57,811 nt of DNA from Candidatus Omnitrophota bacterium (GTDB taxonomy: Bacteria; Omnitrophota; Gorgyraeia; Zapsychrales; JANLHA01). Positions 1-45,294 of this stretch are shown one piece after another (position 1 is the stretch's first letter; each line of letters begins with the position of its first letter). Position numbers and translations under genes: made by a program. The notes below the pieces were generated by a model. The model worked only from the letters and a program-made list of their open reading frames with translations. It made no database searches and was not told the origin of the DNA. The DNA lies in contig JBFMEN010000071.1 in the NCBI GenBank assembly GCA_040753435.1, positions 1-57,811 of the forward strand, read 5' to 3'.

Positions 1-331
1 GAAAAAACATGGAAACAAAAATCGCCAACGCCATGCGTTTTGCCTATCTCTCCGGTAACATCAATTCTGAGGCAACGAATCCTAAATTCCCTCTTCACGA
101 GTAACATCTAATTATGAGTCAACTGGAGCATCCCCAAAACCAATCGTCTTGTTCCCTAGGTATTTATTCTAAAAAACGGCTTTGGCAACAAAGGCAAAAG
201 GAACCATTTTTTTTGATTAAATTTCATAAAAAATTAAACCTTTTTAAAAGAGAGCGGTTTCTTAAATACTCTTTTTCCTGATTGTTTTAGCTTATTTTTA
301 TAATATACTTTTTATATACAAAAATCATGCT

Positions 332-2854
332 ATGAAAAAAATATTCTTTGCGATTATTATTTTTGTTACCGCTATTTCCGCCGTATCCGCTGATACGGTG
401 GCGTTTACCGCACTTTATCCCACTCCCCAAGGGAGCTTCGATTCATTCAAACTGATTCCGCAGTCGGAAACCGCAACTGGCACCGGTTCTCTGGGCCAAC
501 CCTGCCAGGTTCCCGGAAAAATCTTTTTCAGCCTGGAGAACAATACCCACTATTCTTGCAATAAGAACCTGCTGGAGGGAACGAGCGGATATTCATGGGG
601 TTATCTGCCCGGGGTCTGGCGACAACAAGGGAATACAATTTTTCTTTCTGAAACGCTAAATCCTGTGACAACCTACATTGGCATCGGAACACCCGAAACC
701 TACACCACCCATAAATTAACAATCGCCAACGATGGCTCGATCGTCGCTGCCGGACCACTGTCAGGGCCTGAGGGAGTATTGAGTTATTTTAACAATCTTA
801 CAACTTCCGGTTCCGGAACACGATTTATCTGGTGGCCTGAAAAAGCAGCCGTGCGCGCCGGTGGTATTCAAACGGCACCCGATCACCTGGATTACGCGAT
901 TAATTCGTTGTTTTTCACGCCGGCCTGGGATGCCGCTTCAATTGCCAATTATTCCGTGGCCTTCGGTATCAACAATGAGGCCAGGGGTCCTTATTCGGGG
1001 ATCCTCGGAGGAGAGTATAACCTCATTGACATGCCGGCGCTCCACAGCGTGATTTTAAACAGCGCGCTCAGTGCATCCATTACCCTGGCAAGCATAGCAA
1101 GCGTCTCGGCGGGCGGAACAATTGCAGACTCCACTCACAGCTTCGCGTCAGGAACACATGCCGAAATTAGCCAAAGCAATTACTCTGCGATTTTGAATTC
1201 CGGCGGGATCGCCCGCGCGCCTTACAGTTTTATCGGCGGGGCGGTTCCCAATCCGGATTCGAGCTATAACCCCTGGGAAGTCCTCGGCGAATTAACCACC
1301 CTGTCCAACCTTGAAATCCAGATCTTTCCCGACACATGCGCCGCTGTTGACAACTCTTACGGCGCCCTGATAACCAACGGACTATGTCCCTCCGAAATGT
1401 GTGAGGACGACAGGCCTATATCCCATGGAACCTTCCTCGGCGGATACGGGGTGATGAATTGCTCGGAATACGGGTTCACAGGCGGCGGAAGCCAGCATAT
1501 GATGCACGAATCTCCTTTAAGCGTTATCGGCGGAGGACAACGCAACTCAATGATTTACGGCTATAACAACACCATTCTCGGAGGCGAAAACAACCGGGCC
1601 GGCGGAGGACAACTCCCCCTGCCCCCTGCCTCGCCGGCAGTAATGCATTATGGAAGTTATCAGTTCATCGGCGGCGGCAAAGACAACATCGTTCACACCG
1701 ATTACAGCGTAGTGGCCGGCGGAGAAAACAACGAAGCCGGGTCTCTGAAAAACAGCGGGCTCCATGCGACCCATGCCGCTGTCGGCGGAGGCAAAGGAAA
1801 CAAGTCCTGGGGGAAAGCCTCTTTCATCGGCGGCGGAGAAAACAACCGTATCGGAGCCTGCGGCGACGCAAATTGCTCGACCATAATAAATGACCCTTCC
1901 GATAACAGCGGCAGCCACGCCGTCATCATGGGAGGAAAAAATAACAGAAACGCCGGCGACTATGCCTTCATCGGCGCCGGGGAAAATAACACCATCACTG
2001 AAAACGGCGATTACTCCGTCATTGAGGGAGGAAAGAATGTCACCGTGAACGGCGCTTACTCCTGGGCGTTCGGAAAAAACGTTGTCGTCAACGCGGATAA
2101 TTCCTGGGTGTTCGGCTTCACGAATGATGACGCCGATCCCATTACTGTCGATAAAAACAATGTGGTCATCTTTTATAACGAAGACGCGCCGGTTTTCCTG
2201 TCAAACCATATTGTCACCAATACGGTTTTGAATTTTCTTCAACCCGGAGAGTTGCCGGAGACCTGGGGGGTCAACGCCGTGGTCGAGGTCGGATCGCTGA
2301 AAGCGGAAACCCTGATCTTGACCGAGCCGCCTGTCTCCACAACGCCGATCGCCAATCTTTCCATCATAAACGACTGCCTTCCCACCGGATACGGAGCTTG
2401 CATCGGACAGGAAGACCTCGCAGAGGTGTTTGATTCTTCCGAAGAGGTCTCTCCCGGGGATCTGCTTGTGTTGGACGATAACAGCCGGGAAATCATCCTT
2501 GCCAAAAGCCGGCGGGCTTATGACGGGAATATCATAGGTGTCGTTTCTTCATCACCGGCCATGATCTTTAACGACGAGGCGCTTGTATCCGATTTTTCAA
2601 CGACGGCAGAAAAAACAATAAAACCTCCCGTCGCTTTAACCGGCCAGGTCCCGTGCAAAGTGACTTTGGAAAACGGTCCCATCGCCTACGGCGATCTGCT
2701 CACTTCGTCCTCAACGCCCGGGCATGCGATGAAAGCGACGGACCGCGAACGATCATTAGGCGCGGTCGTAGGAAAGGCCCTGGAGCCATTTGATGAAAAA
2801 ACGAACAAAGGGGCAGAGACAGGAATGATTACCATTTTTGTCTCTTTACAATAA
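332..2854 (+). CDS. Secreted Gly-rich fibre/adhesin-like protein with C-terminal peptidase G2 (intramolecular chaperone, autocleavage) domain; paralogue 1
   Basis: Sec signal (MKKIFFAIIIFVTAISAVSA-D); GSGTRFIWWPEKAAVRAG motif; many IGGGxxN repeats; C-terminal EDLAEVF...GDLLVL...IIGVVS...VALTGQVPCKV...GDLLTSS..PGHAMKA. Confidence 0.75.
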   Translation: MKKIFFAIIIFVTAISAVSADTVAFTALYPTPQGSFDSFKLIPQSETATGTGSLGQPCQVPGKIFFSLENNTHYSCNKNLLEGTSGYSWGYLPGVWRQQGNTIFLSETLNPVTTYIGIGTPETYTTHKLTIANDGSIVAAGPLSGPEGVLSYFNNLTTSGSGTRFIWWPEKAAVRAGGIQTAPDHLDYAINSLFFTPAWDAASIANYSVAFGINNEARGPYSGILGGEYNLIDMPALHSVILNSALSASITLASIASVSAGGTIADSTHSFASGTHAEISQSNYSAILNSGGIARAPYSFIGGAVPNPDSSYNPWEVLGELTTLSNLEIQIFPDTCAAVDNSYGALITNGLCPSEMCEDDRPISHGTFLGGYGVMNCSEYGFTGGGSQHMMHESPLSVIGGGQRNSMIYGYNNTILGGENNRAGGGQLPLPPASPAVMHYGSYQFIGGGKDNIVHTDYSVVAGGENNEAGSLKNSGLHATHAAVGGGKGNKSWGKASFIGGGENNRIGACGDANCSTIINDPSDNSGSHAVIMGGKNNRNAGDYAFIGAGENNTITENGDYSVIEGGKNVTVNGAYSWAFGKNVVVNADNSWVFGFTNDDADPITVDKNNVVIFYNEDAPVFLSNHIVTNTVLNFLQPGELPETWGVNAVVEVGSLKAETLILTEPPVSTTPIANLSIINDCLPTGYGACIGQEDLAEVFDSSEEVSPGDLLVLDDNSREIILAKSRRAYDGNIIGVVSSSPAMIFNDEALVSDFSTTAEKTIKPPVALTGQVPCKVTLENGPIAYGDLLTSSSTPGHAMKATDRERSLGAVVGKALEPFDEKTNKGAETGMITIFVSLQ

Positions 2855-2855
2855 A

Positions 2856-5159
2856 ATGAAATATCTCAAACTTATAACAATCTGCATTTTGACCGTGCCC
2901 CTGCTTGCGATATCAGCAAGCGGCGAGACGACCCTTGAAATGGAAACTTTTCACATTTCCCCCGTCAACAGATACAAAAGCCTGTCCTTCCCTCCCCGTC
3001 AACAAATAGGGACACTGGGAGGGGCATGCGCGAACAACGGAGAAATTTTTACCAGCATGGACGCGGACAGCAGTCTCGCGTATTGTAAAAACAATACCTG
3101 GTCTTACTTCCCGGGAATATGGAATCTGAACCATTCCCAGGACACTCCTCCTATAGAAACGGTTATCCTGACGGATCAATCCTCGCCGCGATCACCGAGG
3201 CTGGGCCTTGGCACAACCACTCCGCCTTTAACGTTAAGCCTTTTTGACCTGGGCGGCATTCTGGCCAAAGGCATTGAGCAGATTCCGATCGACACCGTCG
3301 GGCATTCCAATTTCGGAGATATCCTGTCCCTGGTACCCCAGGAAGACAGGCCGATTTTCTGGTGGTACCCGCAGAAAGGAGCTTTCCGGGCGCAGTATTT
3401 CAATTTAAAAACCGATGTCAGCGGCAAATGGACAAGCAACGACGGAAACACCGGTTATTATTCTACCGCTTTCGGAAATTCAAATGTTGCCGCAGGACGC
3501 GGGTCATTTGCAGCGGGAAACCTTAACCGCGCGCTGGAAGATCTTTCTTCTATCACCGGAGGAGAAAACAACCTCATTGACATTGCCGACAAGTCACCTG
3601 TCCCTGACCCTGCCGCAGCCGGTGCGGGATGGCGCACGGGTTCAACCATAGCAGGAGGCTCAGCGAACCAGATCGCCGGGACGGCGGACTTTATCGGAGG
3701 AGGCCAGTCCAACAGTATCTCTGGAGCCGACAGCAGCGCGATCGGAGGCGGATACGGCAACGCTGTCACTGGAGACTACTCCATTATTCTTGGCGGATAT
3801 CAAAACCAGAATAACAGCGACTCCAGCATGATTTCAGGCGGGTATCAGAATATTATTGAAAGCGGGGCTGCTTACTCCTCCATCATCGGCGGGAAAAATA
3901 ACCGGATCAAAACCGGATCCGACCACTCTTTGATACTCGGAGGAGAGTCAACACTGACCGGCAGCGGAAGCGTATTGGCCAATGGCGGACATTATCCGAT
4001 AACACTAACATCGGCAGGAAGCTATTTGTTTTTCACAGGCAATCATTACAATTATTATCTGGCCAATGGCAACGGAGAAACCACGATTCCCGGAGGATTC
4101 GAAAGAAAAGCAGGGACTTATGCCGTTCACCTTCTGGGGACGCTCAATGAACAAGTAAACGCTCAATTGGTCTCTGACTTCTCAACTGTTTTAGGGGTAA
4201 CCGCTCCCTTAACTTACAGCGGTGGCGGATCAGGAGATCATTCAGTCGTGGTTAGTCCATCGACGGCCCCTGGCGGAGATGAGCTCGTGAACTTCAATAA
4301 AACCGTCAACGCCCCCTACTCCTTTTCTACAAGCGGAGGTGGAATATTCGCTTATGCTTCAGGGTCCCATTCTGTTTTTCATGGCGGCGGTATAGGAAAT
4401 TCAACATGGTCTTTCGCCCCCGGATTTTCAGATTGTTCCGGCAGTTTTACCAAGGCCAATAATTCTTTTATTTTTTCACCGGGGAATAACGTCATCATGA
4501 ATTGGGATAACGACAACACCTACGCCATTTTCGCCGCCTGTTCCGGCGCCAACGTTTCAAAAGGCATTGGCATCGCGATCGGAGTCCAGGGGGCGTCGAG
4601 CCTGGATCCTTCCGAGGAGCAGCTTAAAGTGAGCGGAAAGGTCCGTTCCAGAAAATTCAAGATCGGCTATATCCCTGCGGTCGGAGGAAGCGCGCTCTAT
4701 CACGACAGCGGAACCAAAGCGGTTTTTCATAACGACCTGGCGGAAGTTTTTACGTCCATTCAAGATGTCGAGCCCGGCGATATAGTCACGATCCATCCGG
4801 ATGGAAACAAGCTTGTAAAAAGCGCCGTGCCCTATGATCCGGCTGTTATCGGCATCGTTTCACTGATGCCGGCCGTCCTTTTTGAAGGAGACCAGATCTT
4901 GCTGCCGCCGGAAGCGCCGACTCAAGCGACGTCGCGGCCTCCGGTTTCATTAGCCGGACGGGTTAAAGTCAAGGTGTGCACGGAAAACGGTCCGATCCGG
5001 AGAGGGGATTTGTTAACGACGTCCTCGATTCCGGGGACCGGGATGAAGGCCGACAAGACAATCAGGGCTGAACACGCGATTGTCGCAAAGGCCCTGGAAG
5101 ATTTCAATCCCGATGGAGAAACGACCGGAACGATTGTGGCCGTCATAATGGTGAGATAG
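2856..5159 (+). CDS. Secreted Gly-rich fibre/adhesin-like protein with peptidase G2-like C-terminal domain; paralogue 2
   Basis: ATG 2856 one base after the previous TAA (preferred over TTG 2838); signal peptide; FWWYPQKGAFRA; GGxxN repeats; NDLAEVF...VSLAGRVKVKV...GDLLTTS..PGTGMKA. Confidence 0.75.
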   Translation: MKYLKLITICILTVPLLAISASGETTLEMETFHISPVNRYKSLSFPPRQQIGTLGGACANNGEIFTSMDADSSLAYCKNNTWSYFPGIWNLNHSQDTPPIETVILTDQSSPRSPRLGLGTTTPPLTLSLFDLGGILAKGIEQIPIDTVGHSNFGDILSLVPQEDRPIFWWYPQKGAFRAQYFNLKTDVSGKWTSNDGNTGYYSTAFGNSNVAAGRGSFAAGNLNRALEDLSSITGGENNLIDIADKSPVPDPAAAGAGWRTGSTIAGGSANQIAGTADFIGGGQSNSISGADSSAIGGGYGNAVTGDYSIILGGYQNQNNSDSSMISGGYQNIIESGAAYSSIIGGKNNRIKTGSDHSLILGGESTLTGSGSVLANGGHYPITLTSAGSYLFFTGNHYNYYLANGNGETTIPGGFERKAGTYAVHLLGTLNEQVNAQLVSDFSTVLGVTAPLTYSGGGSGDHSVVVSPSTAPGGDELVNFNKTVNAPYSFSTSGGGIFAYASGSHSVFHGGGIGNSTWSFAPGFSDCSGSFTKANNSFIFSPGNNVIMNWDNDNTYAIFAACSGANVSKGIGIAIGVQGASSLDPSEEQLKVSGKVRSRKFKIGYIPAVGGSALYHDSGTKAVFHNDLAEVFTSIQDVEPGDIVTIHPDGNKLVKSAVPYDPAVIGIVSLMPAVLFEGDQILLPPEAPTQATSRPPVSLAGRVKVKVCTENGPIRRGDLLTTSSIPGTGMKADKTIRAEHAIVAKALEDFNPDGETTGTIVAVIMVR

Positions 5160-7580
5160 ATGAAAAAAAGAACGCTCATGATAATTTGTTTGCTCTCCCT
5201 GCTCTTCGCCGCGCCAATTGCGGCCCAGACAAAATCTATTACCATGCGCGCCTTTTTCCCTGAACCCATCGGAACCTATGACCGCATCCTGCTTCGCGAG
5301 GTAAACATCGATCCGATGACCGCCACGGATTGTGATGTGGGCGCCCTCTACGCAAGAACAAGGCTCGTCCTGCCCGAGATCCAGACCATCTACGCCTGCT
5401 ACGACAACGACAACTATTTCCCGGAACCCGGTTCATGGAAAATCATTCGGGGCGTCTGGTCATATCAACCCCGAGACGGCGAGTCCGTTGGAACTATTGA
5501 CCGGATCTATCCGACTGCTAATTCCTCAAACCTGCGTTTCAACATCACCCCGACTTCAGCGTTAACCGAACCCGAATTCCGGCTCACGATGGATAATGAC
5601 GGGGGAATTCTTTCGGTAGGTTCTCTGATCGCCGACGGACAACAATATACCCAGCTGCCGCTGAGCGAATTTCCGGGTATTACCTATGGTTCCGGAACCC
5701 GTTTATTATGGTATCCGGCAAAATCAGCTTTTCGCGCCGGCCATTTATCCGAAACAGTGCCCGATTACTGGAACGACGCCGAGATCGGCAATTTTTCGGC
5801 CGCCATGGGCCGGAATCAGCGCGCCTCTGCCGATTACGCCATGATTTTAAGCGGCAGCGGCAACATTATTGACGCTTTGGGCACGGCATCAACGATCGCA
5901 GGCGGAACGGATAACCAGATTAGATCAGTCTCAGCGGATTACACCGGCGCATATGGCATTATCGGCGGCGGGCAGGCGAATATAATCATGGGCAGTGACA
6001 ACCGGGACGCTAAATTCAGCTTCATCGGCGGCGGACAAGCCAACGAAGTCAGAAGCAGGTGGGGCGTCGTTATCGGCGGGAAGAGCAATAAGAAATTAGG
6101 AAATATATACTACGCCGATTACAGCGTCATCGGCGGCGGGGAAAACAATATGATCGGCAACTCAGCAGCTCCGACCGAAGAAGACAACCATCCCAACATC
6201 GTCGTAGGAGGAAAAGACAACGTCGTCGACATCAGAAATAATCAGGCTTCGGGAAGTATCGGCGGGGGCATGTATAATAAGGTTCTTGTCGCTCCTCTCT
6301 ATCCAGCCACCCGTTTCTCGCATTCCCTGATCCTCGGCGGAGGCTCTTTTGCGACAACCGATGGCAACACGATTGACGGGGATTCCAACATCATCGCGGG
6401 AGGAGAAAATAATGCGATCGGAAACTCGGGTGACACTTTTGATCACCACTCCTCATTCATCGGTGGAGGAAAGGATAACGTGGTCGAGGCATATGAATCT
6501 TGCCTTTTTGGCGGAGAAGGCGGCATCATTGACGGTGATACAAGCGGTTCAGGCGTTATTATCGGCGGAAAAAATAACCGGCTTAATATCACAACTTCTT
6601 CCCTGACCCCTCCTTTTATCGGCGGCGGAGAGGGCAACATGGCTTCCTTCCGCGCCTCCATTTGCGGAGGAAATAATAACCAATGCGATATGAACAACGG
6701 ATTCATCGGGGGCGGACAGAACAACGGATGCTGGGTCATGGGCGGCTCGGGCAACGCGGGGGCCAGCGGCAACGTAGGGGTCAGCGGCGGGAAAAATATG
6801 CAGGGCGGGGCTCAATATCTCTGGGGGCATTCGGACGCCCCGTTCTCGATCGTGCCCGCGGTCAACGCCTTCATCATTTATGACAACAACGACATCCGCG
6901 ATGACGATAATGACGGCGATAACGAACTGGACGGCGAGCCCAACGATGACGATAAGTACGTGAAGGTCGGCGTACAGACATTGACCCCCCAGGAGCGGCT
7001 GGACGTTAACGGCGGAATCATAGTCAGAGGCTTTATAATGCCTGATGCCACTTTCCAGGGAACCTATCTCGGAAATGTCCCGACAGGAGTAGCGGGCGTC
7101 CAGCTCAGGCTCGACACAACAGGCGAATTCGCCCTGGATTTGGCGGAACATTTTAGAAGCGATGAAAGGCTTTCGCCCGGATCCGTAGTTATCATTAATG
7201 AAGCGACCGGAAAAGTGAGCGAATCCATTTCTCCCTACAGCCGAAATGTCGTCGGCATCGTTTCGACCTCCCCCGCCATGGTTTTTGAAAACAGCCGCAT
7301 CATCATCAATCCCAAAGGCGATGAAACCCCGTCCGTTAATCAGGGGACTACCAGCCGGATCGCATTAAAGGGGCGCGTGCCGGTTAAAGTCACGCTTGAG
7401 AACGGGCCGATCAAACCGGGAGATCCATTAACATCTTCCTCGCTTGCCGGTCATGCCATGAAATCAGCAGATCCTGAAAAATCCTGGGGGACAACCATCG
7501 GAAAGGCGCTTGAAGGGTTCTCCGGCGGACCGGAAGGCCAAAGCGAAGGCGTGATCACTGCGTTCGTTACTTTATATTAA
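5160..7580 (+). CDS. Secreted Gly-rich fibre/adhesin-like protein with peptidase G2-like C-terminal domain; paralogue 3
   Basis: ATG abuts the previous TAG; signal peptide; GSGTRLLWYPAKSAFRAG; IGGGxxN repeats; VGVQTLTPQERLDVNG; LDLAEHF...IALKGRVPVKV...GDPLTSS..AGHAMKS. Confidence 0.75.
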   Translation: MKKRTLMIICLLSLLFAAPIAAQTKSITMRAFFPEPIGTYDRILLREVNIDPMTATDCDVGALYARTRLVLPEIQTIYACYDNDNYFPEPGSWKIIRGVWSYQPRDGESVGTIDRIYPTANSSNLRFNITPTSALTEPEFRLTMDNDGGILSVGSLIADGQQYTQLPLSEFPGITYGSGTRLLWYPAKSAFRAGHLSETVPDYWNDAEIGNFSAAMGRNQRASADYAMILSGSGNIIDALGTASTIAGGTDNQIRSVSADYTGAYGIIGGGQANIIMGSDNRDAKFSFIGGGQANEVRSRWGVVIGGKSNKKLGNIYYADYSVIGGGENNMIGNSAAPTEEDNHPNIVVGGKDNVVDIRNNQASGSIGGGMYNKVLVAPLYPATRFSHSLILGGGSFATTDGNTIDGDSNIIAGGENNAIGNSGDTFDHHSSFIGGGKDNVVEAYESCLFGGEGGIIDGDTSGSGVIIGGKNNRLNITTSSLTPPFIGGGEGNMASFRASICGGNNNQCDMNNGFIGGGQNNGCWVMGGSGNAGASGNVGVSGGKNMQGGAQYLWGHSDAPFSIVPAVNAFIIYDNNDIRDDDNDGDNELDGEPNDDDKYVKVGVQTLTPQERLDVNGGIIVRGFIMPDATFQGTYLGNVPTGVAGVQLRLDTTGEFALDLAEHFRSDERLSPGSVVIINEATGKVSESISPYSRNVVGIVSTSPAMVFENSRIIINPKGDETPSVNQGTTSRIALKGRVPVKVTLENGPIKPGDPLTSSSLAGHAMKSADPEKSWGTTIGKALEGFSGGPEGQSEGVITAFVTLY

Positions 7581-7629
7581 AAAAAATCTGAAAGTGGATA
7601 GCGTTAAAGAAGAAATATAAAAACAAGGT

Positions 7630-8313
7630 TCACAAACTCTGCAAATCCGAATTCTTTAAATTTATCAATAAAACGATTTCACCTTTCACCGTCTTTTGAG
7701 AAAAATACTCAAAAACCTCACGTGCGCTTCCTTTTTTCACCTCTTCGAATTTCTTCGTCGCTTCCCTGACGACGCAAACAACGGGATTCTCCAAAACATC
7801 TCCGATGTCGTTCAGGCTCTTTAATAAACGATACGGGGATTCATAACAAATGAGCGTGCCTTCTTTGCCCTTCCACGAATCAATCTTTGAACGGCGGGCG
7901 GAAGATTTAACGGGCAGAAAACCTTCAAAACAAAACTTGTCCGTCGGAAAACCGGAGAGGCTCAAGGCGGCGATCGCGGCGCACGGGCCGGGGACCACCG
8001 TAACAGGAATCCCTTCACGCCGGGCCGCTTCAACAAGACGGTACCCGGGGTCACTGATGCCGGGAGTGCCGGCGTCGGAAACAAGAGCCACGGTCTTCCC
8101 CTGTTTCATGAGTCCGGTCAAATAATCCGCTTTCTTAGCCTCATTATGTTCAAAATAACTGGTTTGGGGGGTATCAATGCCGTAATGTTTTAAAAGAATT
8201 CCCGTGTGACGGGTGTCTTCAGCCGCGATGAGGTCGACACTTTTCAGGACCTCAACCGCGCGAAAGGTCATGTCTTTTAAATTTCCGATAGGAGTGGAGA
8301 CGATATATAACAT
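7630..8313 (-). CDS. rsmI: 16S rRNA (cytidine1402-2'-O)-methyltransferase
   Basis: MLYIVSTPIGNLKD, AAEDTRHT, VSDAGTPGISDPG, YESPYR, KGEIVL motifs. Confidence 0.95.
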   Translation of the reverse strand: MLYIVSTPIGNLKDMTFRAVEVLKSVDLIAAEDTRHTGILLKHYGIDTPQTSYFEHNEAKKADYLTGLMKQGKTVALVSDAGTPGISDPGYRLVEAARREGIPVTVVPGPCAAIAALSLSGFPTDKFCFEGFLPVKSSARRSKIDSWKGKEGTLICYESPYRLLKSLNDIGDVLENPVVCVVREATKKFEEVKKGSAREVFEYFSQKTVKGEIVLLINLKNSDLQSL

Positions 8314-8379
8314 AGAAAATGAGAACACGGACACGGAGCGCTTTTTTCCCGGCCGCCGGGCTCTTTTAAAATTTATTGT

Positions 8380-10266
8380 CTATTCGACTGTAACTGATTT
8401 CGCCAGATTTCTCGGTTGATCGACGTCACAATTCAAGGCCACGGCAATATAATATGCCAGCAACTGAAACGGCAGGGCTACAAGCAACGGAGTCAATATG
8501 TTTTTAGTTTTGGGAATGTAAATGACGTGATTGGCGTGCCGCTGAACAACTTCATCGCCTTCCGTGGCTATGGCGATCATTTTTCCCCGTCTGGCCCTGA
8601 TTTCCTGCATATTCGAAATCATTTTGTCATATGTGTCGGATTGCGGGGTGATGCAGACGACAGCCCGGTACTCATCGATCAGAGCGATCGGACCATGCTT
8701 CATTTCCCCTGCCGCGTAACCTTCTGCAGGGATGTAAGAAATCTCTTTCAGCTTCAAGGCCCCTTCAAGGGCGGAAGGATAATTGACATTCCGGCCAAGA
8801 TAAAGAAAACATCCGAAATGGGAATTTTTCCTGGCGATCTTCTGAATATGGGACTTTTTCACCAGAATCTGCTCATAGGCGTCAGGTATCTTCTCCAGGG
8901 CAGCAATCAAATCCTGATAAACGGCCTGCTTCAACTGCCCGTTTTCCCTGCCGATCTTCAACGCCAGAAGATACAGCATGGCAATCTGGGCGACATAGGC
9001 CTTGGTAGACGCAACGCCGATCTCGGGGCCGGCATGAGTGTAAAGAATCCCGTCGGATTCCCTGGCAAGGGACGACCCGACCACATTGCAGACAGAAACG
9101 ACTTTGGCACCCTGGGCGTGCGCTTCCCGCACGGCTGCGAGTGTGTCCGCAGTTTCGCCCGACTGGCTGATAGCGATTACCATAGTGTTTTTTGTTAAAA
9201 TAGGCTCCCGGTACCTGAATTCACTCGCCGCATCGACTGTGACAGGGACCCTCGCCATTCCTTCGATCAAATATTTTCCAAGAAGTCCTGCATGATAAGC
9301 TGTCCCGCAGGCAACGATGACAATATGATTAATCGTTTGCGGCAGAGTCAATTCCATCCCTTCCAGAACTACCTCTCCCCCCTTCAGGCGTTCTTTAAAC
9401 ATCCGCCGCAAAACATCGGGCTGCTCGTGAATCTCCTTAAGCATGAAATGCGCATAGCCCTGCTTTTGTACAGCATCAACGCTAAACTTCACCGTTTCTA
9501 TTTTGGGGGAAACGTCCTCGCCTGTAAAGGTGGACAACTTCACCTTATCCTTTGTCAGGAAGGCAATCTCTTTATCTTTGAGGTAAATAATCTTTTTGGT
9601 CCTATCTAAAATCGCAGGGACATCCGAAGCGATAAAGTTCTCGCCTTCTCCAATTCCGATGATAAGCGGAGAACCGACGCGCGCAGCTATAAGCGAATCG
9701 GGGCAATCATTGCATAAAATTCCCACAGCAAAAGAACCCTCGAGATCAGCGACGGCGCGGCGAACAGCCTCTTCGAACAAGGACGAAACGATTTCCCCTC
9801 CGGCTTCATTCGTCAAACCGTTATTTCCATCCGAAGTAATCTGGCTGTAATAAAACCCGATCAGATGGCTGATGACTTCCGTATCGGTTTGTGAAACGAA
9901 TTTTACGCCGGCTTCCTCAAGATTTGTTTTCAGCTGCTGATAATTTTCAATGATCCCGTTGTGGACAACCAGAAATGTTTTTGAATGATCGAAATGCGGA
10001 TGGGCATTGATCCGGTTAGGGGCGCCATGAGTCGCCCAGCGTGTGTGTGAAATTCCGATAGAACTGTTCGGTAAAGCTTTTCTCTTGATCAGGTCACGGA
10101 GCTGATTAATCTTCCCCTGTCGCTTGCGGATAACAATTCTGTTCTTTTTTAAATCGATAATCCCCAAACCGCTTGAATCATAACCCCGATATTCCAGCTT
10201 TTGAAGCCCTTCTAAAAGAATAGGAACTGCTGAGCGTGTTCCGACATATCCAATAATACCGCACAT
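8380..10266 (-). CDS. glmS: Glutamine--fructose-6-phosphate transaminase (isomerizing)
   Basis: MCGIIG, LEYRGYDSSG, HTRWATHG, SQSGETADT, GEMKHGP, PRNLAKSVTVE. Confidence 0.98.
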   Translation of the reverse strand: MCGIIGYVGTRSAVPILLEGLQKLEYRGYDSSGLGIIDLKKNRIVIRKRQGKINQLRDLIKRKALPNSSIGISHTRWATHGAPNRINAHPHFDHSKTFLVVHNGIIENYQQLKTNLEEAGVKFVSQTDTEVISHLIGFYYSQITSDGNNGLTNEAGGEIVSSLFEEAVRRAVADLEGSFAVGILCNDCPDSLIAARVGSPLIIGIGEGENFIASDVPAILDRTKKIIYLKDKEIAFLTKDKVKLSTFTGEDVSPKIETVKFSVDAVQKQGYAHFMLKEIHEQPDVLRRMFKERLKGGEVVLEGMELTLPQTINHIVIVACGTAYHAGLLGKYLIEGMARVPVTVDAASEFRYREPILTKNTMVIAISQSGETADTLAAVREAHAQGAKVVSVCNVVGSSLARESDGILYTHAGPEIGVASTKAYVAQIAMLYLLALKIGRENGQLKQAVYQDLIAALEKIPDAYEQILVKKSHIQKIARKNSHFGCFLYLGRNVNYPSALEGALKLKEISYIPAEGYAAGEMKHGPIALIDEYRAVVCITPQSDTYDKMISNMQEIRARRGKMIAIATEGDEVVQRHANHVIYIPKTKNILTPLLVALPFQLLAYYIAVALNCDVDQPRNLAKSVTVE

Positions 10267-14577: not shown

Positions 14578-17500
14578 TTACTGCATCTGTTTTTTTAACG
14601 CCTCAATCCGCTCCTTCAGCTCTTCATTTGTATCAAGCAGATCAAAATAATCTTTGGCGAGTTCCTCGCTGTCCCTGGTCACGCTCTCGACTTTCTGGAC
14701 GGCTTCGATCACTTCGTTCTGTTTCAAATTCAACAAGGAGTCCTTGCTGTTGATAACTGTGACAAGGGAATCGATCTTCTGTTCGAGCTCCTGACGCTGC
14801 AGTTCGAGATCCTTTAATGCCTGTTCCTGCTGAAGCTCCGCTTCTTTTTTTAGCCGCTCGATCTCCTGGTTCAGAAAAACACCTTCGCGCTGCACTGAGG
14901 ACAACGTGACTGTCATTGTCTCAATTTCCTTTTTCAGGGCGACAGCCTCAGCGATCTTCGCCGCTAAATCCTTTTCTGTCTGCCCGAATTTATTTTCAAG
15001 CTCCTTGAATTGAGCCGCCGTTTCTTTCCGCGCGCGCTCGACCCGCTCCTGGATGGACGCTTCAAGTCCGGCAATTTCTTTTTCAAGCCTGTCTTCCTCA
15101 GCCGACCAGGACTGCTTCATTTGTTCCATCTGAACGGCTGCGGCCTTCTCCCGTTCCGCGATCTGTCCGTTCAACCGCTGAATTTCCTCGAGCAGCGGCT
15201 GCTTGGCCTCATCGACCTTCAAAACCAAAGCCTTCTCCTGCTCTTTAATCTCCCGCTCAAGCGTGAAGATGTTTTCCGTCAGGGGTTTTTTCGCTTCTTC
15301 AATATGCTGTTGTTCCAGCCGCTGCTGCTCGGATAAATCTTTTTCCAGCGAGAGGATCTTTTCACCGAGCGGCTTTTGTCCTTCAGCGATCTTGCCGGGA
15401 ATGGACTGTTTCAGGGAATCGAACTCTTTTTTTAAATTCTGGTTAGCGGCGCTTAATTGCTGAACCTCCTTTTTAGCACCGGCGAGAGACGCATTTAAAC
15501 GGGACAGTTCTTCGCTCAATGACTGGTTCTGTTCCTGATGCCGGGCGATATCCTGGTTTTTTTGAGAAATATCCGCGTTCATCGCGTCGATTGCTTTCTG
15601 GTGTTCCTGCTGTAAACGCCCGACTTCTGTCTGATGCTCGCTTTGCTGAACGTCCATCTTCTGTTTGAGCAGCGCGATGTTCTCTTCCAAAGGCCGTTTC
15701 GCGTCTTCGACGCGCGCTGCTGCGGCCTTCTCGGCCTCCTGCATCCTGTCGATCAGTTCGTTAATCTTTTCCTGCAACGGCTGCCGGGCCTTCAGGATCG
15801 CCACCTCCGCCATATTATCTTTTTCTCTTAACTGACGCTGATAATCGCCGGCCTGGGATTCAACCGTCTTCTGCAATTCCGCAATCTTTCCCTGAGAAAG
15901 ACTCAGAGCAGTTTGATATTCGGCCTCGCGCTGTTTTATTTGTTGATCAAACTGCTGCTTCTGTTTCGTCATTTCCTGTTCTGAAGAACTCCTGAGCAGA
16001 TTCATCTGTTCGGTCAACGCCCTGGCCGACTCATCCACCCTGGCGTTCAAAAGCGCCAGTTCATTCTTGTGATCCCGGGCCATCCGGGCATTTTCTTTCA
16101 GAATGTTGTCGCGTTCCTCCTGAAGAACAGAGAGACGTTTACTTAAATCCTCTGCCGTCTTCCCGGCTGTTGTTTTCTCCGCCGTCAGCTCATCAATAAA
16201 ATTTTTACGCTCCTGAGCCGCCGACTGAAGGCCTTTGATTTCCTGATTCAGACGTTCAATGTTTTCCAAAAGCGGTTTTTCCGCGAGTTCGATCCGGACC
16301 GGAACTTCCTGCCGCTGGACTTCCAGTTTCTTTTCAAGCTCGTCGATACTTTTTAATAAGGGCGTTCTGGCTTCTTCAATTTGCACCGGCAGGCTTTCTC
16401 CGGCCTTCGCCAATTGAGCCTTAAGTGAACGAATTTCTTCCTCGAGAGGATTCCTGGCTTCGTTGAGCTGCCCCGGAATCGATTGCTTTAATTGCGCCAT
16501 CTCGACGGTTAATGCCTGGATCTCTTCCTCTAAAGGCTTCCTTGCAAGACTGATCTGCGCGGGCAAAGACTTTTCCGCTGATTGAAGGCGTTGCTCGAGA
16601 TCGCCGATTGTTTTCAGCAATGGCGCCTTTGCTTCGTCAACCTTAAGCGGAAAATTTTCTTTGACCGAAACCAGTTCAGCTTTCAAACCCTGAATTTCTT
16701 CTTCAAGCGGGGCTTTTGCATTCGCAATTTTGGCGGGAACCATTTCCCTTTCCGAGTCCAGCTCTGCCTTCAAACGTTGAATCTCCTGTTCCAGGGGTTT
16801 CCTGACTTCTGCAATCTCGCCTGAATGCTTCTCGCGATCCAGCGCAAGCCCGGATCTCAGCTGTTCGATTTCCTTCAACAAAGGCTTTTTCGCTTCATCA
16901 ACTTTTAAAGAAGCCTCTTTGCCAAGACGTTCAATCTCCCGCCGAAGAGCTTCAATTTCTTTCTGCAAAGGTTCCCTGACGTCAGAAACAAGACGGGGAA
17001 TCTCTTTCTCTCGGTCGGCAACTTTTTGCTGAAGTTCAGCAACGATCTTCTCTTTGGCTGCCAGTATCGACGTCAGCGATTGAACTTCTTGTGACAGCGT
17101 TTTTCCCTGGGTTGCCAGCCGATCCAGCGCCGAGTCCCGCTCCTGCTGAAGAGCGAGGATCGTTTCTTTAAGCGGAGCCGCGGCATTGGCGATCTCCGAA
17201 GGGATGCTCCCTTTGACCGTCTGAATTTCCTGCTGAAGTTTTGCGATTTCCTGACGAAGAATCCCCTTCTCTTCTTCCGTCTTTTTCTCCCACTCCGACT
17301 GCGCTTTCTTAACCGTACCGGGGACTGAATCCTTCAGTTCTTTTAGCTCGCTTTGCAATTCTTTAATTTGAGCCAGCAGCGGCTGGCGCGCCTCCTCGAC
17401 CTGCTTCAAAGAAGATTTATCCTTGTCATTCAACTGCTGCTTCAAATTTTCAATCGTTTCTTTTAATGGATGTTTGGCCTCTGAAACGAGCCGGGGCATG

Positions 17501-19155
17501 GATTGCCTGAGCAGATCCAATTCCTTCTCGACGGAAGCAATTTTAGATTCGTAATCCGCACGAATGGCAGCGGCCTGTTCCGTTACGATCTTTTCATGTT
17601 CCTGTCGCTGACGCTCAAGATCACCGCGGGCCTCATTTAACCGTTTTTCATCGGCAGTCTTCTGTTTATCTGCGTCTTCTTTAGCCGTCTGCAGCCGGCG
17701 ATTTAAATCCTGTTCCCGCACGCGTAAATTATCAAGCTCGGCAAGAAAGCCGTCTCTCTCTGCTGAAAGCTGTTTGATCTGCTTCTGCCGGTCTTCCGAT
17801 TCTTTTTTAATAAGGGTGGCTTCCGAAGCCATTTTTTCCAATTTATCCAGAAGCGGCTTCTGAACCTGATCGATTTTCGACGGAATACTTTTGTTGGCCG
17901 CATCCAGATCATTCCTTGCCCGTGCGAGCTCCTTCTCCAGCGACGCCTTTTCATCGGCAGAGCGTTTGATATCCGTCAAAAGGCGCGCCCGTTCTTTATC
18001 GTTATTCGCTGTTTCTCCGGCCTTCCTGTCAATTTCAGCCTGCAGCCTGGCGATCTCGCCCGTCAGCGAATCCTTTTCCCCTTGGCGTTCTTGCTCAAGG
18101 GCGACTGTCTTCTCATCGGACATTTTTTGCAAAGAAGAAATCTGCTGGTTGAGTTCCCTGACTTTTGCTTCGAGGGGCTGTTTGGCTTTTTCCAGATCAG
18201 CCGATGCGGTTTTACGCATCTGCTGTATTTCTCCCTCAAGTTGGGAAATCCTGGTTTTAAGCGGGATTTCAGCCTGCCCGACCTTTGATTCCACAGAATT
18301 TTTAAGCAAATCGACTTCCGACGATAAATTCATTATACGCTGCTGGAGTTTGCCGCGCGCCTCAGAAATCTCCCGCGCACACGACATTTCGCTCCCTTTG
18401 AGTTTGTCCGTCAAAATGGTGACTTTATTTTCCCGCTCATCAAGTGTCTGCCGCAGGACTGACATCTCTTTATTCAACTGATCGATATCCCGCTTGAGTG
18501 TTTGGGCACTGGCCAGCGACTCCTTAAGGCTGCTTTCCTTCGCTGCCAAATCAGTCTGGAGCGAGTTCATTTTTTCACTCAGGGCACGGGTTTCTTCTTT
18601 AAGCTTCCGCTCAAAATCCTGTTTCATTTGACCGGTGAACTCTTCGGCCGCGTTCTTCTCCCGCTTCAAGGTTTCCGCTGTCTCCGCTTCGATCCTGGCT
18701 TTTTCTCCCTCAAGCATTTTCACATTGACCCCGATCGATTCCATCTGCTGCTCAAGGACGCCCTGCTGTCGTTTCAACGCCGCATTCTCCTGACTTAAAG
18801 CCTCTTTTTCTTTCTTCAGATTCTCAATCGCCTTCTCCTTATCGCTCAACGCTGCCGAAATCTGACCCGCCCCGGTCTCATTCACCTGGAGCCTCTGCTC
18901 AATTTGGGAAGCCCCGTCCCGGATCTCTTTTAACTGCCCCTGGTACATTTCGACATCCTTCCGCGCCTGGATAAGTTCCCGTTCGATCCGCTGTTTGTCC
19001 TGATTGAGCGTCTCATATTTTTTCAGTAACGCGTCTGTCTTGTCGATCAGGGCTTGATTGTCACAGCTTTGCGCGGCGGCCTTCGGGGAAACGGACAGGC
19101 AAGACATTAAAAAAACCAGCATAAAAAGAAAGCTCTGCTTCTCGTGCAAATGCAT
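14578..19155 (-). CDS. Large exported coiled-coil protein with 29-aa Pro-punctuated repeats
   Basis: CAGGAG RBS before ATG 19155; hydrophobic signal ending AAA-Q; E/K/L/Q-rich heptads; recurring (A/V)(K/R)xPLxxxIxxL. Confidence 0.75.
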   Translation of the reverse strand: MHLHEKQSFLFMLVFLMSCLSVSPKAAAQSCDNQALIDKTDALLKKYETLNQDKQRIERELIQARKDVEMYQGQLKEIRDGASQIEQRLQVNETGAGQISAALSDKEKAIENLKKEKEALSQENAALKRQQGVLEQQMESIGVNVKMLEGEKARIEAETAETLKREKNAAEEFTGQMKQDFERKLKEETRALSEKMNSLQTDLAAKESSLKESLASAQTLKRDIDQLNKEMSVLRQTLDERENKVTILTDKLKGSEMSCAREISEARGKLQQRIMNLSSEVDLLKNSVESKVGQAEIPLKTRISQLEGEIQQMRKTASADLEKAKQPLEAKVRELNQQISSLQKMSDEKTVALEQERQGEKDSLTGEIARLQAEIDRKAGETANNDKERARLLTDIKRSADEKASLEKELARARNDLDAANKSIPSKIDQVQKPLLDKLEKMASEATLIKKESEDRQKQIKQLSAERDGFLAELDNLRVREQDLNRRLQTAKEDADKQKTADEKRLNEARGDLERQRQEHEKIVTEQAAAIRADYESKIASVEKELDLLRQSMPRLVSEAKHPLKETIENLKQQLNDKDKSSLKQVEEARQPLLAQIKELQSELKELKDSVPGTVKKAQSEWEKKTEEEKGILRQEIAKLQQEIQTVKGSIPSEIANAAAPLKETILALQQERDSALDRLATQGKTLSQEVQSLTSILAAKEKIVAELQQKVADREKEIPRLVSDVREPLQKEIEALRREIERLGKEASLKVDEAKKPLLKEIEQLRSGLALDREKHSGEIAEVRKPLEQEIQRLKAELDSEREMVPAKIANAKAPLEEEIQGLKAELVSVKENFPLKVDEAKAPLLKTIGDLEQRLQSAEKSLPAQISLARKPLEEEIQALTVEMAQLKQSIPGQLNEARNPLEEEIRSLKAQLAKAGESLPVQIEEARTPLLKSIDELEKKLEVQRQEVPVRIELAEKPLLENIERLNQEIKGLQSAAQERKNFIDELTAEKTTAGKTAEDLSKRLSVLQEERDNILKENARMARDHKNELALLNARVDESARALTEQMNLLRSSSEQEMTKQKQQFDQQIKQREAEYQTALSLSQGKIAELQKTVESQAGDYQRQLREKDNMAEVAILKARQPLQEKINELIDRMQEAEKAAAARVEDAKRPLEENIALLKQKMDVQQSEHQTEVGRLQQEHQKAIDAMNADISQKNQDIARHQEQNQSLSEELSRLNASLAGAKKEVQQLSAANQNLKKEFDSLKQSIPGKIAEGQKPLGEKILSLEKDLSEQQRLEQQHIEEAKKPLTENIFTLEREIKEQEKALVLKVDEAKQPLLEEIQRLNGQIAEREKAAAVQMEQMKQSWSAEEDRLEKEIAGLEASIQERVERARKETAAQFKELENKFGQTEKDLAAKIAEAVALKKEIETMTVTLSSVQREGVFLNQEIERLKKEAELQQEQALKDLELQRQELEQKIDSLVTVINSKDSLLNLKQNEVIEAVQKVESVTRDSEELAKDYFDLLDTNEELKERIEALKKQMQ

Positions 19156-19274
19156 CGCAAGCTCCTGTTCATATTTTAAAAATATTGATTTTATTATATT
19201 ATGAAATCTGAAGATGCGAAACAAAAAGGCTTTTTTCTTCTCTGGTTTTTCTGCCCTGTGTTATACTATTTTTC

Positions 19275-22305: not shown

Positions 22306-23007
22306 ATGAAAAGGAAATACTTGCTTTTTTTAACCGGGTTAACGCTGCTTACGCTGATTGCGTTACCTGCCCACGCAACTGTCCTTGTCTTTAATCAGGG
22401 AATGGATGTGTGGTTGTCTTCTTCAGGCACGGCTGGAGACGGCGGTAATCCCAACCTGGGATGGGGACGATCAATCGGAGTCAACGCCAAAAATTATGAC
22501 ACATTGATCAAATTCACCAATGTTTTCGGGACAGATCCAAATCAAATCCCGTTGGGAAGCACGATCAACAGTGCGGTTATGAGCATGTGGGTAGGTTATG
22601 ATAACAACGACACCAGTTATATTTATCAGATGACCCACGACTGGAATGAAGCTTCCTCATGGACGACCATTGGAAGCACGGGCGGGATCGTCGCGGGAGT
22701 GAATACTGAAGCCGCCCCCGAATTCCAATGGACAGGAACAACCGATGCGTGGTCTCAAAGGGCCTTTGATCTCACCGCGTCTGTACAGGACTGGTCCGGC
22801 GGCGCTGACCAATTCGGATGGGGCATCACCAAATCACGAAACGGTATCGTAACGGCAACGTCATTGAATTATTCAACGGCATCCTATCGTCCTTTCCTGA
22901 CAGTGGATTTCTCTCCGGCGGCTGTGGTTCCAGAGCCTGCAAGCATTGCCATGATGGGATTGGGGTTATGCGGATTATTTGGAAAGTATCATAAGCGTTT
23001 TATTTAA
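22306..23007 (+). CDS. PEP-CTERM surface protein (DNRLRE/CBM96-like domain)
   Basis: Signal peptide; TLIKF...IPLGSTINSA...WNE..RPFLTV; C-terminal VPEPASIAMMGLGLCGLFGKYHKR. Confidence 0.85.
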   Translation: MKRKYLLFLTGLTLLTLIALPAHATVLVFNQGMDVWLSSSGTAGDGGNPNLGWGRSIGVNAKNYDTLIKFTNVFGTDPNQIPLGSTINSAVMSMWVGYDNNDTSYIYQMTHDWNEASSWTTIGSTGGIVAGVNTEAAPEFQWTGTTDAWSQRAFDLTASVQDWSGGADQFGWGITKSRNGIVTATSLNYSTASYRPFLTVDFSPAAVVPEPASIAMMGLGLCGLFGKYHKRFI

Positions 23008-42234: not shown

Positions 42235-42729
42235 TTAAGGGGATGGACAGTTGGGCACGGTCAGACAGGAATTCGGCAAACCGCAGCAAGGATGGTTTTC
42301 ATCAAACGGCAGTGCGCTGACGAAGTTAAGACTGAAATAATCCGATTGACGGGAGCCATAACACGCAAAGTCAGAAACCGGGAGAGTGGTGCCATCGAAC
42401 GAGCACTCTCCGCAGCATGCATAGTCAAAGTTCTGTTCCGGCTGAATATTAAGGTTTAAATTTGCATTGATCTCTTCGAGATTACACCAGGCAGCGCTGG
42501 CGCAGTTCCACCCGTCAATGTGCGACGGCCAGTAATGACCGTGTTTTGCGCGATAAATTTCATTGGCATTACGTATCAATTCCAGATTAAACCTGGTCCT
42601 TTCTTCAAGTTTTCTCGTCAGCAGCTTTGTATAATTAACATAAGCCACGCCTGCGGAAACAGATAAAATGACAACGACGATGAGAATCTCCATTAACGTG
42701 AATCCGGATTTCAGCTTAAAAACTTTCAT
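42235..42729 (-). CDS. Type IV pilin/pseudopilin with Cys-rich C-terminus
   Basis: Prepilin site KSG|FTLMEILIVVVIL; nine Cys in the globular part; GGAGGG RBS. Confidence 0.88.
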   Translation of the reverse strand: MKVFKLKSGFTLMEILIVVVILSVSAGVAYVNYTKLLTRKLEERTRFNLELIRNANEIYRAKHGHYWPSHIDGWNCASAAWCNLEEINANLNLNIQPEQNFDYACCGECSFDGTTLPVSDFACYGSRQSDYFSLNFVSALPFDENHPCCGLPNSCLTVPNCPSP

Positions 42730-42827
42730 AAACGCCCTCCTGGAATTTAACAAAGGCTGGCTGGAACACATAACGCCTCGTTAGCAAAAACTTATCATTA
42801 AAACATAAAAAAAACAACTGCGAATAA

Positions 42828-44628: not shown

Positions 44629-45294
44629 TTATTTCTTTCTTCTCACAATGCCCATCCCGAGCATTCCCGCGCTTAACAAAGCCACAGTCATGGGTTCGGG
44701 AACAACGGACTGGCCGTCATCGATCCGGACATTGTCAAATGTCTGCACCGAAAAATCATACAGGCCCGCATATCCTGAACTGAACATGGAGGTGGTCAGC
44801 GTTGTCACCGGGGTGTCCGATCCGTTCACATACGCTTTGTAATCATTGCCGGAAACGACAACTTTAATATGGGCGTTGCTTCCCAGCAATCCCGAATAAC
44901 TCGCGTAATTTATACCGGCAGAGTAGCTGTCATTTGACAAAATATGCCAGTAAAAACCGTTAAAAGTCCCGCCGAATCCGCCGGTCACCAGAAGGACCCC
45001 GCTGACCCCGGAGTTGTAGGAACTGCGCAGCCACAAACCGCCGTCCCTGACATTGTTGACGTCCACATCCATGACAAAATCAGTCAGCAATCCTGTTTGC
45101 GCGCTGGAATATGTGGGCGGAACATTATCGGGCGAACCCGCGTTGTAAACCCCTCCGGCCGCACTCCAGTTGCCCCGCTCATTTCCCCACTGCGAACTCC
45201 CCGCGGAGAAATCGTCAAAGAAAACCAATGCATGGGCGGACGGAGCGGTCGCGAGCAGTAACGCCGCGAACAGTAAAAACCATCGACATTTCAT
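44629..45294 (-). CDS. PEP-CTERM surface protein (lectin/DUF1080-like beta-sandwich)
   Basis: Signal AHA-L; FFDDFS...FDNVRI; VPEPMTVALLSAGMLGMGIVRRKK. Confidence 0.88.
   Translation of the reverse strand: MKCRWFLLFAALLLATAPSAHALVFFDDFSAGSSQWGNERGNWSAAGGVYNAGSPDNVPPTYSSAQTGLLTDFVMDVDVNNVRDGGLWLRSSYNSGVSGVLLVTGGFGGTFNGFYWHILSNDSYSAGINYASYSGLLGSNAHIKVVVSGNDYKAYVNGSDTPVTTLTTSMFSSGYAGLYDFSVQTFDNVRIDDGQSVVPEPMTVALLSAGMLGMGIVRRKK

Follow-up and report, generated by a model that had tools for sequence, protein, structure and literature searches.

Three abutting genes for putative surface fibres with a peptidase G2-related C-terminal domain in a conserved chromosomal slot of Omnitrophota

The contig JBFMEN010000071.1 of a Candidatus Omnitrophota bacterium, analyzed here over its whole length of 57,811 nucleotides (nt) and referred to as the window, carries an array of three abutting genes that starts after just 331 nt. 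We read their products as three separate paralogous surface fibres built on the plan of the Bdellovibrio MAT fibres, each of them probably homotrimeric and ending in a self-cleaving chaperone related to peptidase G2; to this reading as a whole we assign a probability of roughly 0.6. Most likely the operon would provide the cell with three homotrimeric fibres, each different, by which to attach to a host or to prey.

Layout of the three fibre proteins

The genes lie on the + strand at 332..2854 (gene 1, 840 amino acids, aa), 2856..5159 (gene 2, 767 aa from the ATG at 2856) and 5160..7580 (gene 3, 806 aa), as delimited from a list of open reading frames (ORFs), family hidden Markov models (HMMs) and motif positions; the ORF of gene 2 is also open from a TTG at 2838 (2838..5159). 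A preliminary description of this DNA, made from the sequence letters, had given three paralogous ORFs spaced by 1 nt (with the ATG start of gene 2) and 0 nt, which the junction sequences confirmed, and pairwise BLASTP comparisons gave E values of 7e-31, 4e-28 and 1e-30 at an overall identity of 31-34%. The protein layout that it proposed was also recovered. Inspected by eye, each chain begins with a Sec signal (a K/R-rich start and a hydrophobic core, then VSA/D, ISA/S and IAA/Q in genes 1, 2 and 3), and this is followed by an N-terminal motif with a Cys pair after it (aa 58/76, 58/77 and 58/80), a WxPxKxAxRA motif (WWPEKAAVRA at nt 830, WYPQKGAFRA at nt 3363 and WYPAKSAFRA at nt 5709) and an IGGGxxN repeat stalk with 8, 8 and 14 GGxxN repeats, respectively.

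Scanned against Pfam and NCBIfam, the three proteins gave no match at E <= 0.1 bar a sub-threshold DUF3568, a PDB search with the single sequences returned nothing meaningful, and three weak matches in PHROGs (E 4e-4, 2e-3 and 7e-3) were to families of unknown function. Of 8000 candidates scored in a word-based search for homologues of gene 3, 84 proteins reached E <= 0.001. The few named ones come from Omnitrophota, Kiritimatiellia, Verrucomicrobiae and Kapaibacterium metagenome bins; relatives that share the stalk end like the window proteins, in Peptidase_S74 or, in one case (P0038), in Peptidase_G2.

The N-terminal domain (N-domain) occupies about aa 21-210 of gene 1 after a signal peptide of about aa 1-20, about aa 25-205 of gene 2 (signal peptide about aa 1-21) and aa 24-215 of gene 3 (nt 5229-5804; signal peptide about aa 1-22). 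It is family-specific, about 190 aa long, and starts with a strand-like (T)TYYPxPxGxY; the full consensus right after the signal peptide is (S/T)xTLTTYYPAPxGxYDRLRLVP, of which the window proteins have degenerate versions, and it is followed by two Cys, a first GIGTxxPxFKLTL element and GTRFIWYPxKAAxRAG. Each of the 49 aligned family members has both Cys (49/49). An HMM of this domain matches the three window genes (E 2e-38 to 5e-43) and every array gene in nine related loci that have both the N-domain and the C-terminal domain (L001-L008 and L032, assigned to Candidatus Omnitrophota or 'uncultured Planctomycetales'). Run over 76 loci collected by the C-terminal domain (see below), it found no further locus except one weak match at 8e-4. 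The proteins found by a word-based search with a consensus-like member (28 in all) are, where named, all from Omnitrophota, and several of them end in S74. In the Atlas, the N-region lies nearest to Bacteroidota clusters carrying PF26696 'PTL_trimer' (score 0.92), a family also borne by P0234 according to its precomputed annotation. Since the N-domain is common to fibres with different ends, it fits a common docking function, and it may well form the cell-proximal docking end. A set of alternative fibres docked through a shared N-terminus, one of the two arrangements first proposed, agrees with this common module followed by variable middles.

The stalk, initially taken for part of a tailspike fold, had to be reassigned to a beta-roll of the UspA1/YadA-head type. 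A family profile built from 49 full-length members matched the Moraxella UspA1 head 3pr7 over about 220 positions (E 1.3e-35), and also UspA1 3ntn (1.8e-12) and the beta-roll ice-binding protein 3ult (1.4e-7). Pfam detected PF21300 in 18, YadA_head in 4 and UspA1_rep in 2 of the 49 relatives, with a weak YadA_head match on gene 2 that lies under the cutoff (E 0.0068, 17.2 bits). Judged by these profiles, the stalk is a left-handed adhesin-head beta-roll and not a right-handed tailspike helix, with turns of 14-16 residues each. Gene 3 has a regular IGGGxxN beta-roll at aa 216-595 (nt 5805-6944), the beta-roll of gene 1 holds a large non-repeat insert at aa ~248-406, and gene 2 shows few regular repeats and then a non-repeat region at aa ~354-520. 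The variable number of turns and the inserts suggest that the beta-roll may be the ligand-binding part.

Between stalk and C-terminal domain sits a neck with the motif GNVGIGTxxPxxKLHV (aa 596-659, nt 6945-7136, in gene 3). Through this motif, the family profiles matched five Bdellovibrio MAT tip structures, annotated as 'cell wall surface anchor family' proteins, at E values ranging from 2.7e-9 to 1e-3 (8ond, 2.7e-9 to 9.8e-8; 8ol4, 8ojn, 8on4 and 8oml). According to Pfam there is no autotransporter barrel near the array, in agreement with the preliminary description, and no match to a YadA-type membrane anchor barrel in the three proteins or in the 49 relatives.

The C-terminal domain and its relation to peptidase G2

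A DLAE motif stands at aa 695, 627 and 660 (nt 2414, 4734 and 7137), just where it had been placed, and opens a domain of 146 aa in gene 1 (aa 695-840, 2414..2851, + strand; family HMM E 3e-59), 141 aa in gene 2 (aa 627-767, 4734..5156, +; E 5e-52) and 147 aa in gene 3 (aa 660-806, 7137..7577, +; E 1e-56), with predicted cleavage before Asp695, Asp627 and Asp660. These lengths replace an earlier figure of about 135 aa for the released part. The three domains open with DLAEVF, DLAEVF and DLAEHF, respectively, and the Asp and Glu of DxAE are invariant in 82/82 and in 49/49 aligned sequences.

Homology with peptidase G2 was evident at the profile level. When the 49-sequence domain profile was compared by hhalign with 18 canonical PF11962 domains, a probability of 93.6% (E 2e-7) was obtained over 49 columns, from DxAE to the GVIS..P strand; controls reached 0.4% (reversed target), 0.2% (reversed query) and 0.5% (S74), the last being a small alignment of four sequences (4/14 S74 sequences passed the motif filter). 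The Asp and Glu of the DxxE motif are said, by Xiang in 2009 and by MEROPS, to be catalytic in peptidase G2. The released fragment of phi29 gp12 (PDB 3gqh) starts DFAEYFES and comprises 163 aa of the 854-aa protein, which places its start at residue 692; the D4 chain of Dpo31 reads ..SDYAEYFEN and is a cleaved auto-chaperone running from Asp664, as told in the section of the source consulted (PMC13317679). A bridge between both groups is given by protein P0157, whose residues 399-529 match our domain HMM end to end (E 1e-17) and whose first part scores 36.5 bits on PF11962; only this bridge sequence reaches the gathering score of 25 bits. By features, the clusters nearest to the domain in the Atlas (score 0.97) consist of viral fragments, 28% and 11% of whose members carry PF11962, and its structure neighbours, by the Atlas's own model, are bacterial hypothetical proteins (template modelling score, TM, 0.82) and a viral cluster with PF11962 on 11% (TM 0.76).

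The DLAE domain also behaves like a chaperone in its conservation. It is the most conserved segment between the window paralogues (40-44% identity vs 17-30% for N-domain, stalk and neck), and its mean identity over 49 sequences is 50.5% vs 30-35% elsewhere. In the second array gene of L007, an S74 domain (67.7 bits on PF13884, SDARWK present) occupies the same position after the same neck. Self-cleavage before DLAE is the course of events that we lean towards: the conserved C-terminal domains of three identical chains would associate after export and set the register for the beta-roll trimer, whereupon each chain would cleave its own backbone immediately upstream of the D-L-A-E Asp, so that the chaperone is freed and the distal tip becomes exposed.

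The domain belongs to a very large family for which Pfam has no model. A HMMER scan with the last 159 aa of gene 3 against 1.84 billion cluster representatives found 17,360 proteins at E <= 0.001, 3,476 at 1e-10 and 26 at 1e-30. A pattern scan of one genome per species gave at least 607 stretches, of which 569 were confirmed among the matches listed; from the same listed matches 76 loci were kept, and these belong to Omnitrophota, CPR/Patescibacteria, Bacteroidales, Acidobacteriota, Gammaproteobacteria, Chloroflexota, Elusimicrobia and two DPANN archaea. The domain stands at the very C-terminus in 83 of 154 representatives; among carriers of the N-motif, 51/53 have one copy at the extreme C-terminus. 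Giant proteins of 1,300-5,800 aa from other lineages (P0085, P0101, P0115, P0136 and others) have two tandem copies, a 'DLAE' and then a 'DFAE' some 260-290 aa on, before an acidic Pro/Glu/Thr-rich tail of 180-460 aa, and many of these two-copy proteins begin with a signal and then 'NIITYQGRL'. At the other extreme, hardly any stalk is present in the mini-proteins P0087, P0093 and P0114 (259-360 aa), in which a signal peptide and EITLTTYYPAPYG are followed by one or two GIGT caps and then the DLAE domain.

Occurrence in phages was studied by tblastn against 50,697 phage records, in which neither the window C-terminal domain nor P0157 gave a match. The consensus-like P0087 matched 12 records, 11 of them PA5oct-like Pseudomonas jumbo phages, the twelfth (a Thermus phage) matching over a short neck stretch only. 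The PA5oct protein is gp359 (YP_010678855.1, 478 aa, 'virion structural protein'), whose gene immediately follows that of the long-tail-fibre distal subunit; the family HMM matches its last ~135 aa (E 1.8e-17, residues 345-460), which start ADLAERYEA, thus the compact domain ends at least one phage fibre-like protein. The portions of the PA5oct literature consulted contain nothing on gp359. As cellular genomes carry the domain far more often than do the phage records searched, no direction can be assigned to the 'domesticated' tailspike of the preliminary description.

Several observations weigh against our reading. PF11962, the family proposed as a check, gave no match at E <= 0.1 in the three proteins and none at E <= 0.01 in the 49 full-length relatives (0/49), and P0038, a canonical G2 protein, received just 0.6 bits from the domain HMM. 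Alignment of the last ~90 residues with G2 covers 11 columns at 4.3% (VALxGRVxVK / VGLVGQVxIK), and in the hhalign alignment the long charged insert of canonical G2 domains is absent. More than 15 aa follow the domain in 71/154 representatives, mostly as acidic Pro/Glu/Thr-rich tails of 180-460 aa, at least two tandem copies are found in 60/154, and P0087 (259 aa) would retain only ~90 aa after a cut at DxAE. For phi29 gp12, folding takes place in the cytoplasm and binding of adenosine triphosphate (ATP) is reported, according to the consulted part of PMC13317679; export by Sec leads into an ATP-free compartment, so any phi29-type ATP dependence cannot apply here. Bdellovibrio was not among the named proteins of the N-domain search (28 found), hence kinship with MAT fibres rests on the neck, the plan and the C-terminal logic. 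Finally, the upstream flank of the window itself is missing, as the 331 nt 5' of gene 1 leave it unreadable.

Thus the claim that DLAE opens a peptidase G2-like domain stood for the first ~50 residues, the cleavage-site module, whereas the remaining ~90 residues are not demonstrably G2-like and PF11962 gave no match; by its profile the domain is a compact relative that possesses the G2 cleavage-site module and lies outside PF11962 as currently defined. The same facts can be taken differently: the DLAE domain might not be disposable and might stay on the fibre as a distal knob, a binding or enzymatic tip, with only its first strands sharing G2 ancestry. The non-G2-like end, the missing insert, the failure of all 49 relatives to reach PF11962, the internal and tandem copies and the short remnants of mini-proteins all favour such a knob, as do nearly invariant polar residues far from DxAE (ENGPI, GDxLT.SS, GHAMKA and GKALE), which look like a site of their own, and the uncleaved tips of 8/21 Bdellovibrio MAT fibres, as given in the consulted part of PMC10769870. 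Nevertheless, a fibre usually varies most in its receptor-binding tip, whereas here this domain is the most conserved part, the Asp and Glu of DxAE never vary and lie exactly at the domain start, the domain swaps with an S74 chaperone after the same neck within one syntenic array, and its homology is to precisely the cleavage-site module of G2. We therefore regard a retained knob as unlikely, although of all the alternatives it survives best, and keep the self-cleaving chaperone as the preferred reading.

Age of the triad and its chromosomal slot

Three abutting fibre genes are also present in L001, L004 and L005. Array size varies in the other loci: three genes whose ends differ in kind make up the arrays of L007 and L008, while L003 has at least four genes and L032 has three or more. 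One array gene of L003 (7808-10151) is split over two frames at masked or unknown bases (X in the translation), which is probably an assembly gap rather than a real frameshift. A maximum-likelihood tree was constructed from 20 fibres, 8 fragmentary or differently ended rows being excluded. Each window gene paired with the L001 gene at the same position (support 98/94, 100/100 and 99/99 for positions 1, 2 and 3), L004 and L005 paired position by position with 100/100, and the position-3 genes of the four genomes fell into a single group (88/93; recovered in 96% of bootstrap trees). Between the two genome pairs, positions 1 and 2 were left unresolved (40% and 31% of bootstrap replicates). The approximately unbiased (AU) test did not reject single clades for these two positions (p = 0.43 and 0.32), but it rejected a grouping of the three window paralogues with one another (AU p = 0.00046). 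Since genes at the same position pair across genomes, the triad is old and, as far as the tree tells, a vertically inherited part of the chromosome.

There was no sign of concerted evolution between paralogues of one genome. Fibres at the same position are 34-40% identical between the window and L001, vs 72% and 67% for the neighbouring rsmI and glmS between the window and L004; by these identities the fibres diverge much faster than the neighbour genes. Recent gene conversion, a diversity-generating retroelement and an invertible segment were considered and discarded, the sole DNA repeats in positions 1-8000 being the coding repeats of the stalks and the inverted repeats short.

The preliminary description had also suggested that the three chains might assemble 1:1:1 into a single heterotrimeric fibre. 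The spacing of 1 and 0 nt suggests coupled translation, the window, L001, L004 and L005 all retain the order of three genes, with relatives at matching positions, the paralogues are not a recent clade, and their C-terminal domains are similar (40-44% identical) and of equal length (141-147 aa), all of which would suit a heterotrimer. More speaks against it. The arrays of L007 and L008 have three kinds of end each: the DLAE domain, S74 and a third unrelated kind in L007, the DLAE domain, a Cys-rich tip and a third kind in L008, and with three different end modules the chains of neither array could co-fold through one chaperone. The stalks are built unequally: in all four genomes position 1 has 7-9 GGxxN turns, position 2 has 4-8 and position 3 has 14-17, and in the window the N-domain motif is 528, 457 and 476 aa away from DLAE. 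An array may hold at least four genes, as in L003, and paralogues of one genome do not evolve in concert. S74 and G2 fibres and trimeric autotransporters of known structure are, to our knowledge, homotrimers. A joint fibre is consequently quite improbable, and three separate homotrimers remain our preferred assembly.

Two of these alternative ends deserve description. The Cys-rich tip of L008 (6257-7840, +) is short, reads C..G.IY...LCYCDG.SW and resembles the Cys-loop of the family N-domain. The third kind is a ~110-aa domain (...YR(I/V)TF...) without a family match that is common to L007 (14793-16685, +) and L008 (9850-11775, +).

The array is bordered downstream in the window by an rsmI-like methylase gene (7630-8334, -) and glmS (8380-10266, -), both identified by Pfam. 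In the related loci that have a downstream flank, rsmI follows in 8/8 and glmS in 7/8 (the eighth contig ends first), with dsbA further on in 5, and pyrC-pyrB-pyrR lies divergently upstream in 7/7 loci that have an upstream flank; these shared flanks indicate that the array resides in a fixed core-genome slot. A search for a pyrR fragment in the first 331 nt of the window yielded none. An AAA_14/DUF4143 ATPase gene is found at the edge of the slot in two loci, between pyrR and the array in L001 (3335-4555, -) and after the array in L003 (12532-13785, +).

As had been stated, no phage structural gene is nearby: none was detected among 41 further window ORFs scanned against Pfam, nor among the flanking ORFs of seven related loci (47 ORFs, array members included). 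No related locus shows a prophage tail module upstream, and among 54 neighbours of the domain in 11 loci of other phyla no capsid, terminase or tube gene was found, tail-category matches being to other fibre-like genes only. That the three genes belong, as tail-fibre genes, to a prophage, a tailocin or a contractile injection system continuing beyond the contig end is thus hardly credible, despite the short upstream sequence, the presence of the C-terminal domain on a phage virion protein and the phage-like neck and S74-ended relatives, given pyrR, pyrB and pyrC before the array and rsmI and glmS after it, the lack of phage structural families just described, a GC content of the array like that of the rest of the contig, and a Sec signal on every chain, which phage tail fibres do not need.

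A link with type IV pili or secretins, also raised at first, found no backing, as no such gene adjoins the array in the window or in the nine related loci. The sole prepilin-type gene of the window (with N-methylation motif, 42235-42771, -) is ~35 kb from the fibres, which leaves no local link between fibres and pili.

Upstream of gene 1, an AT-rich (72%) non-coding stretch at 106..331 (+), recognized by its composition, is the presumed promoter region of a three-gene operon, an arrangement we read from the gene spacing of 1 nt and 0 nt. A consensus promoter scan found no site in 106-331, and 12 promoter-like sites elsewhere vs 6.8 +/- 3.1 expected; the idea of a recognisable promoter or terminator for the array was dropped after these uninformative scans.

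Further downstream the window encodes a DsbA-like protein, a D-Ala-D-Ala carboxypeptidase, trmB and other housekeeping genes. A 1548-aa protein (14578-19224, -) has no Pfam family and sub-threshold NCBIfam matches of SMC/helix-rich coiled-coil type (84-88 bits vs cutoffs of 270-567); a long ORF is in the same syntenic place in L001, L004, L005 and L032. A cyclic di-AMP riboswitch (RF00379, 25425-25612, -; 57.8 bits vs a gathering score of 38) lies just upstream of an amino-acid permease/Usp fusion gene (23147-25372). Three small PEP-CTERM-tagged proteins (22306-23007, +, which also has a DNRLRE domain; 44629-45294, -; 54206-54937, -) imply an exosortase-type surface sorting system in the organism.

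Significance and comparison with known systems

Omnitrophota are uncultured, mostly ultra-small and proposed to live attached to other cells, and the consulted part of the survey that reports this discusses pili and giant ORFs as attachment candidates, and not fibres of this kind (PMC10066038). No description of the compact domain or of Omnitrophota fibres was listed by the literature searches made, although supplementary lists of MAT-like proteins in PMC10769870 might already name such proteins. New here is a MAT-type set with a G2-related end, a phylum-specific N-domain and a conserved three-gene slot. More tentatively, and as a possibility that we would not yet call probable, the DLAE domain could represent a very large family of compact trimerising auto-proteases, extracytoplasmic and ATP-free, and the pyrR-rsmI slot an ancient, obligatory three-fibre core attachment apparatus of ultra-small Omnitrophota, MAT-like outside Bdellovibrio-type predators.

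The biology is plausible rather than surprising. A conserved and fast-evolving three-fibre operon offers a testable candidate for partner recognition in Omnitrophota, and the set would extend the Bdellovibrio MAT concept to another phylum. Defining the DLAE domain would improve the annotation of thousands of 'hypothetical' fibre and giant proteins, and would open to mechanistic study a relative of the G2 glutamic peptidases that possibly works without ATP.

Among known systems, the G2 auto-chaperones (phi29 gp12 D4, 3gqh, 3gqk, 3suc and 6qz9; Dpo31 D4, 28nb) are likewise the last domain of a fibre or spike and share the D-x-A-E-x-F start followed by ~45 homologous residues (the 93.6% hhalign match); the VGLxGQV strand of G2 has a look-alike in VALxGRV, insignificant alone. 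In contrast to them, the DLAE domain has no Pfam match or charged insert, its last ~90 residues are different and more conserved, and it is Sec-exported. PA5oct gp359 has the same compact domain at its C-terminus, but a phage fibre N-terminus, no signal peptide and no N-domain. Peptidase S74 (K1F endosialidase, T5 pb1 and Bd3182) stands where the DLAE domain stands, behind the same neck, and it ends relatives that have the N-domain and stalk of the window fibres; however, S74 bears no sequence relation to the DLAE domain (0.5% by hhalign, with the 4-sequence S74 alignment) and has SDxxxK where the DLAE domain has DxAE.

Trimeric autotransporter heads (UspA1, 3pr7 and 3ntn; YadA_head, PF05658) resemble the window stalks in their GGxxN beta-roll repeats of 14-16 residues. 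The window fibres differ in having neither a C-terminal YadA-type anchor barrel nor a coiled-coil stalk, and their polarity is reversed, the conserved N-terminus being the candidate anchor.

The closest parallel in plan is offered by the MAT fibres of Bdellovibrio, as described in the consulted part of PMC10769870: 21 paralogues in which a signal peptide precedes a conserved, beta-rich N-domain (~130 aa) and a long stalk that is trimeric. Of these, 13 end in a self-cleaving S74 chaperone and 8 in other tips, which are not cleaved, and the fibres are found on the surface of the predator or at the site of invasion. The window fibres differ from them in that their chaperone-type end is related to G2 and not to S74, their stalk is a UspA1-type beta-roll, their genes form a fixed array in one conserved chromosomal slot, and their N-domain was met, among the loci and proteins searched, only in Omnitrophota-type sequences. 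As in MAT fibres (Bd3182, Bd2133, Bd1334 and others), the signal peptide is followed directly by a conserved N-domain common to the paralogues, and a long beta-stranded stalk, predicted to be trimeric, leads to a GNVGIGTxxPxxKLHV-type neck. Both systems comprise many paralogues with interchangeable C-termini, as in the L007 and L008 arrays, and both are encoded in a chromosomal, non-phage context by organisms with a proposed cell-attached lifestyle (PMC10066038, in the part consulted), in which the fibres described here may act as surface adhesins.

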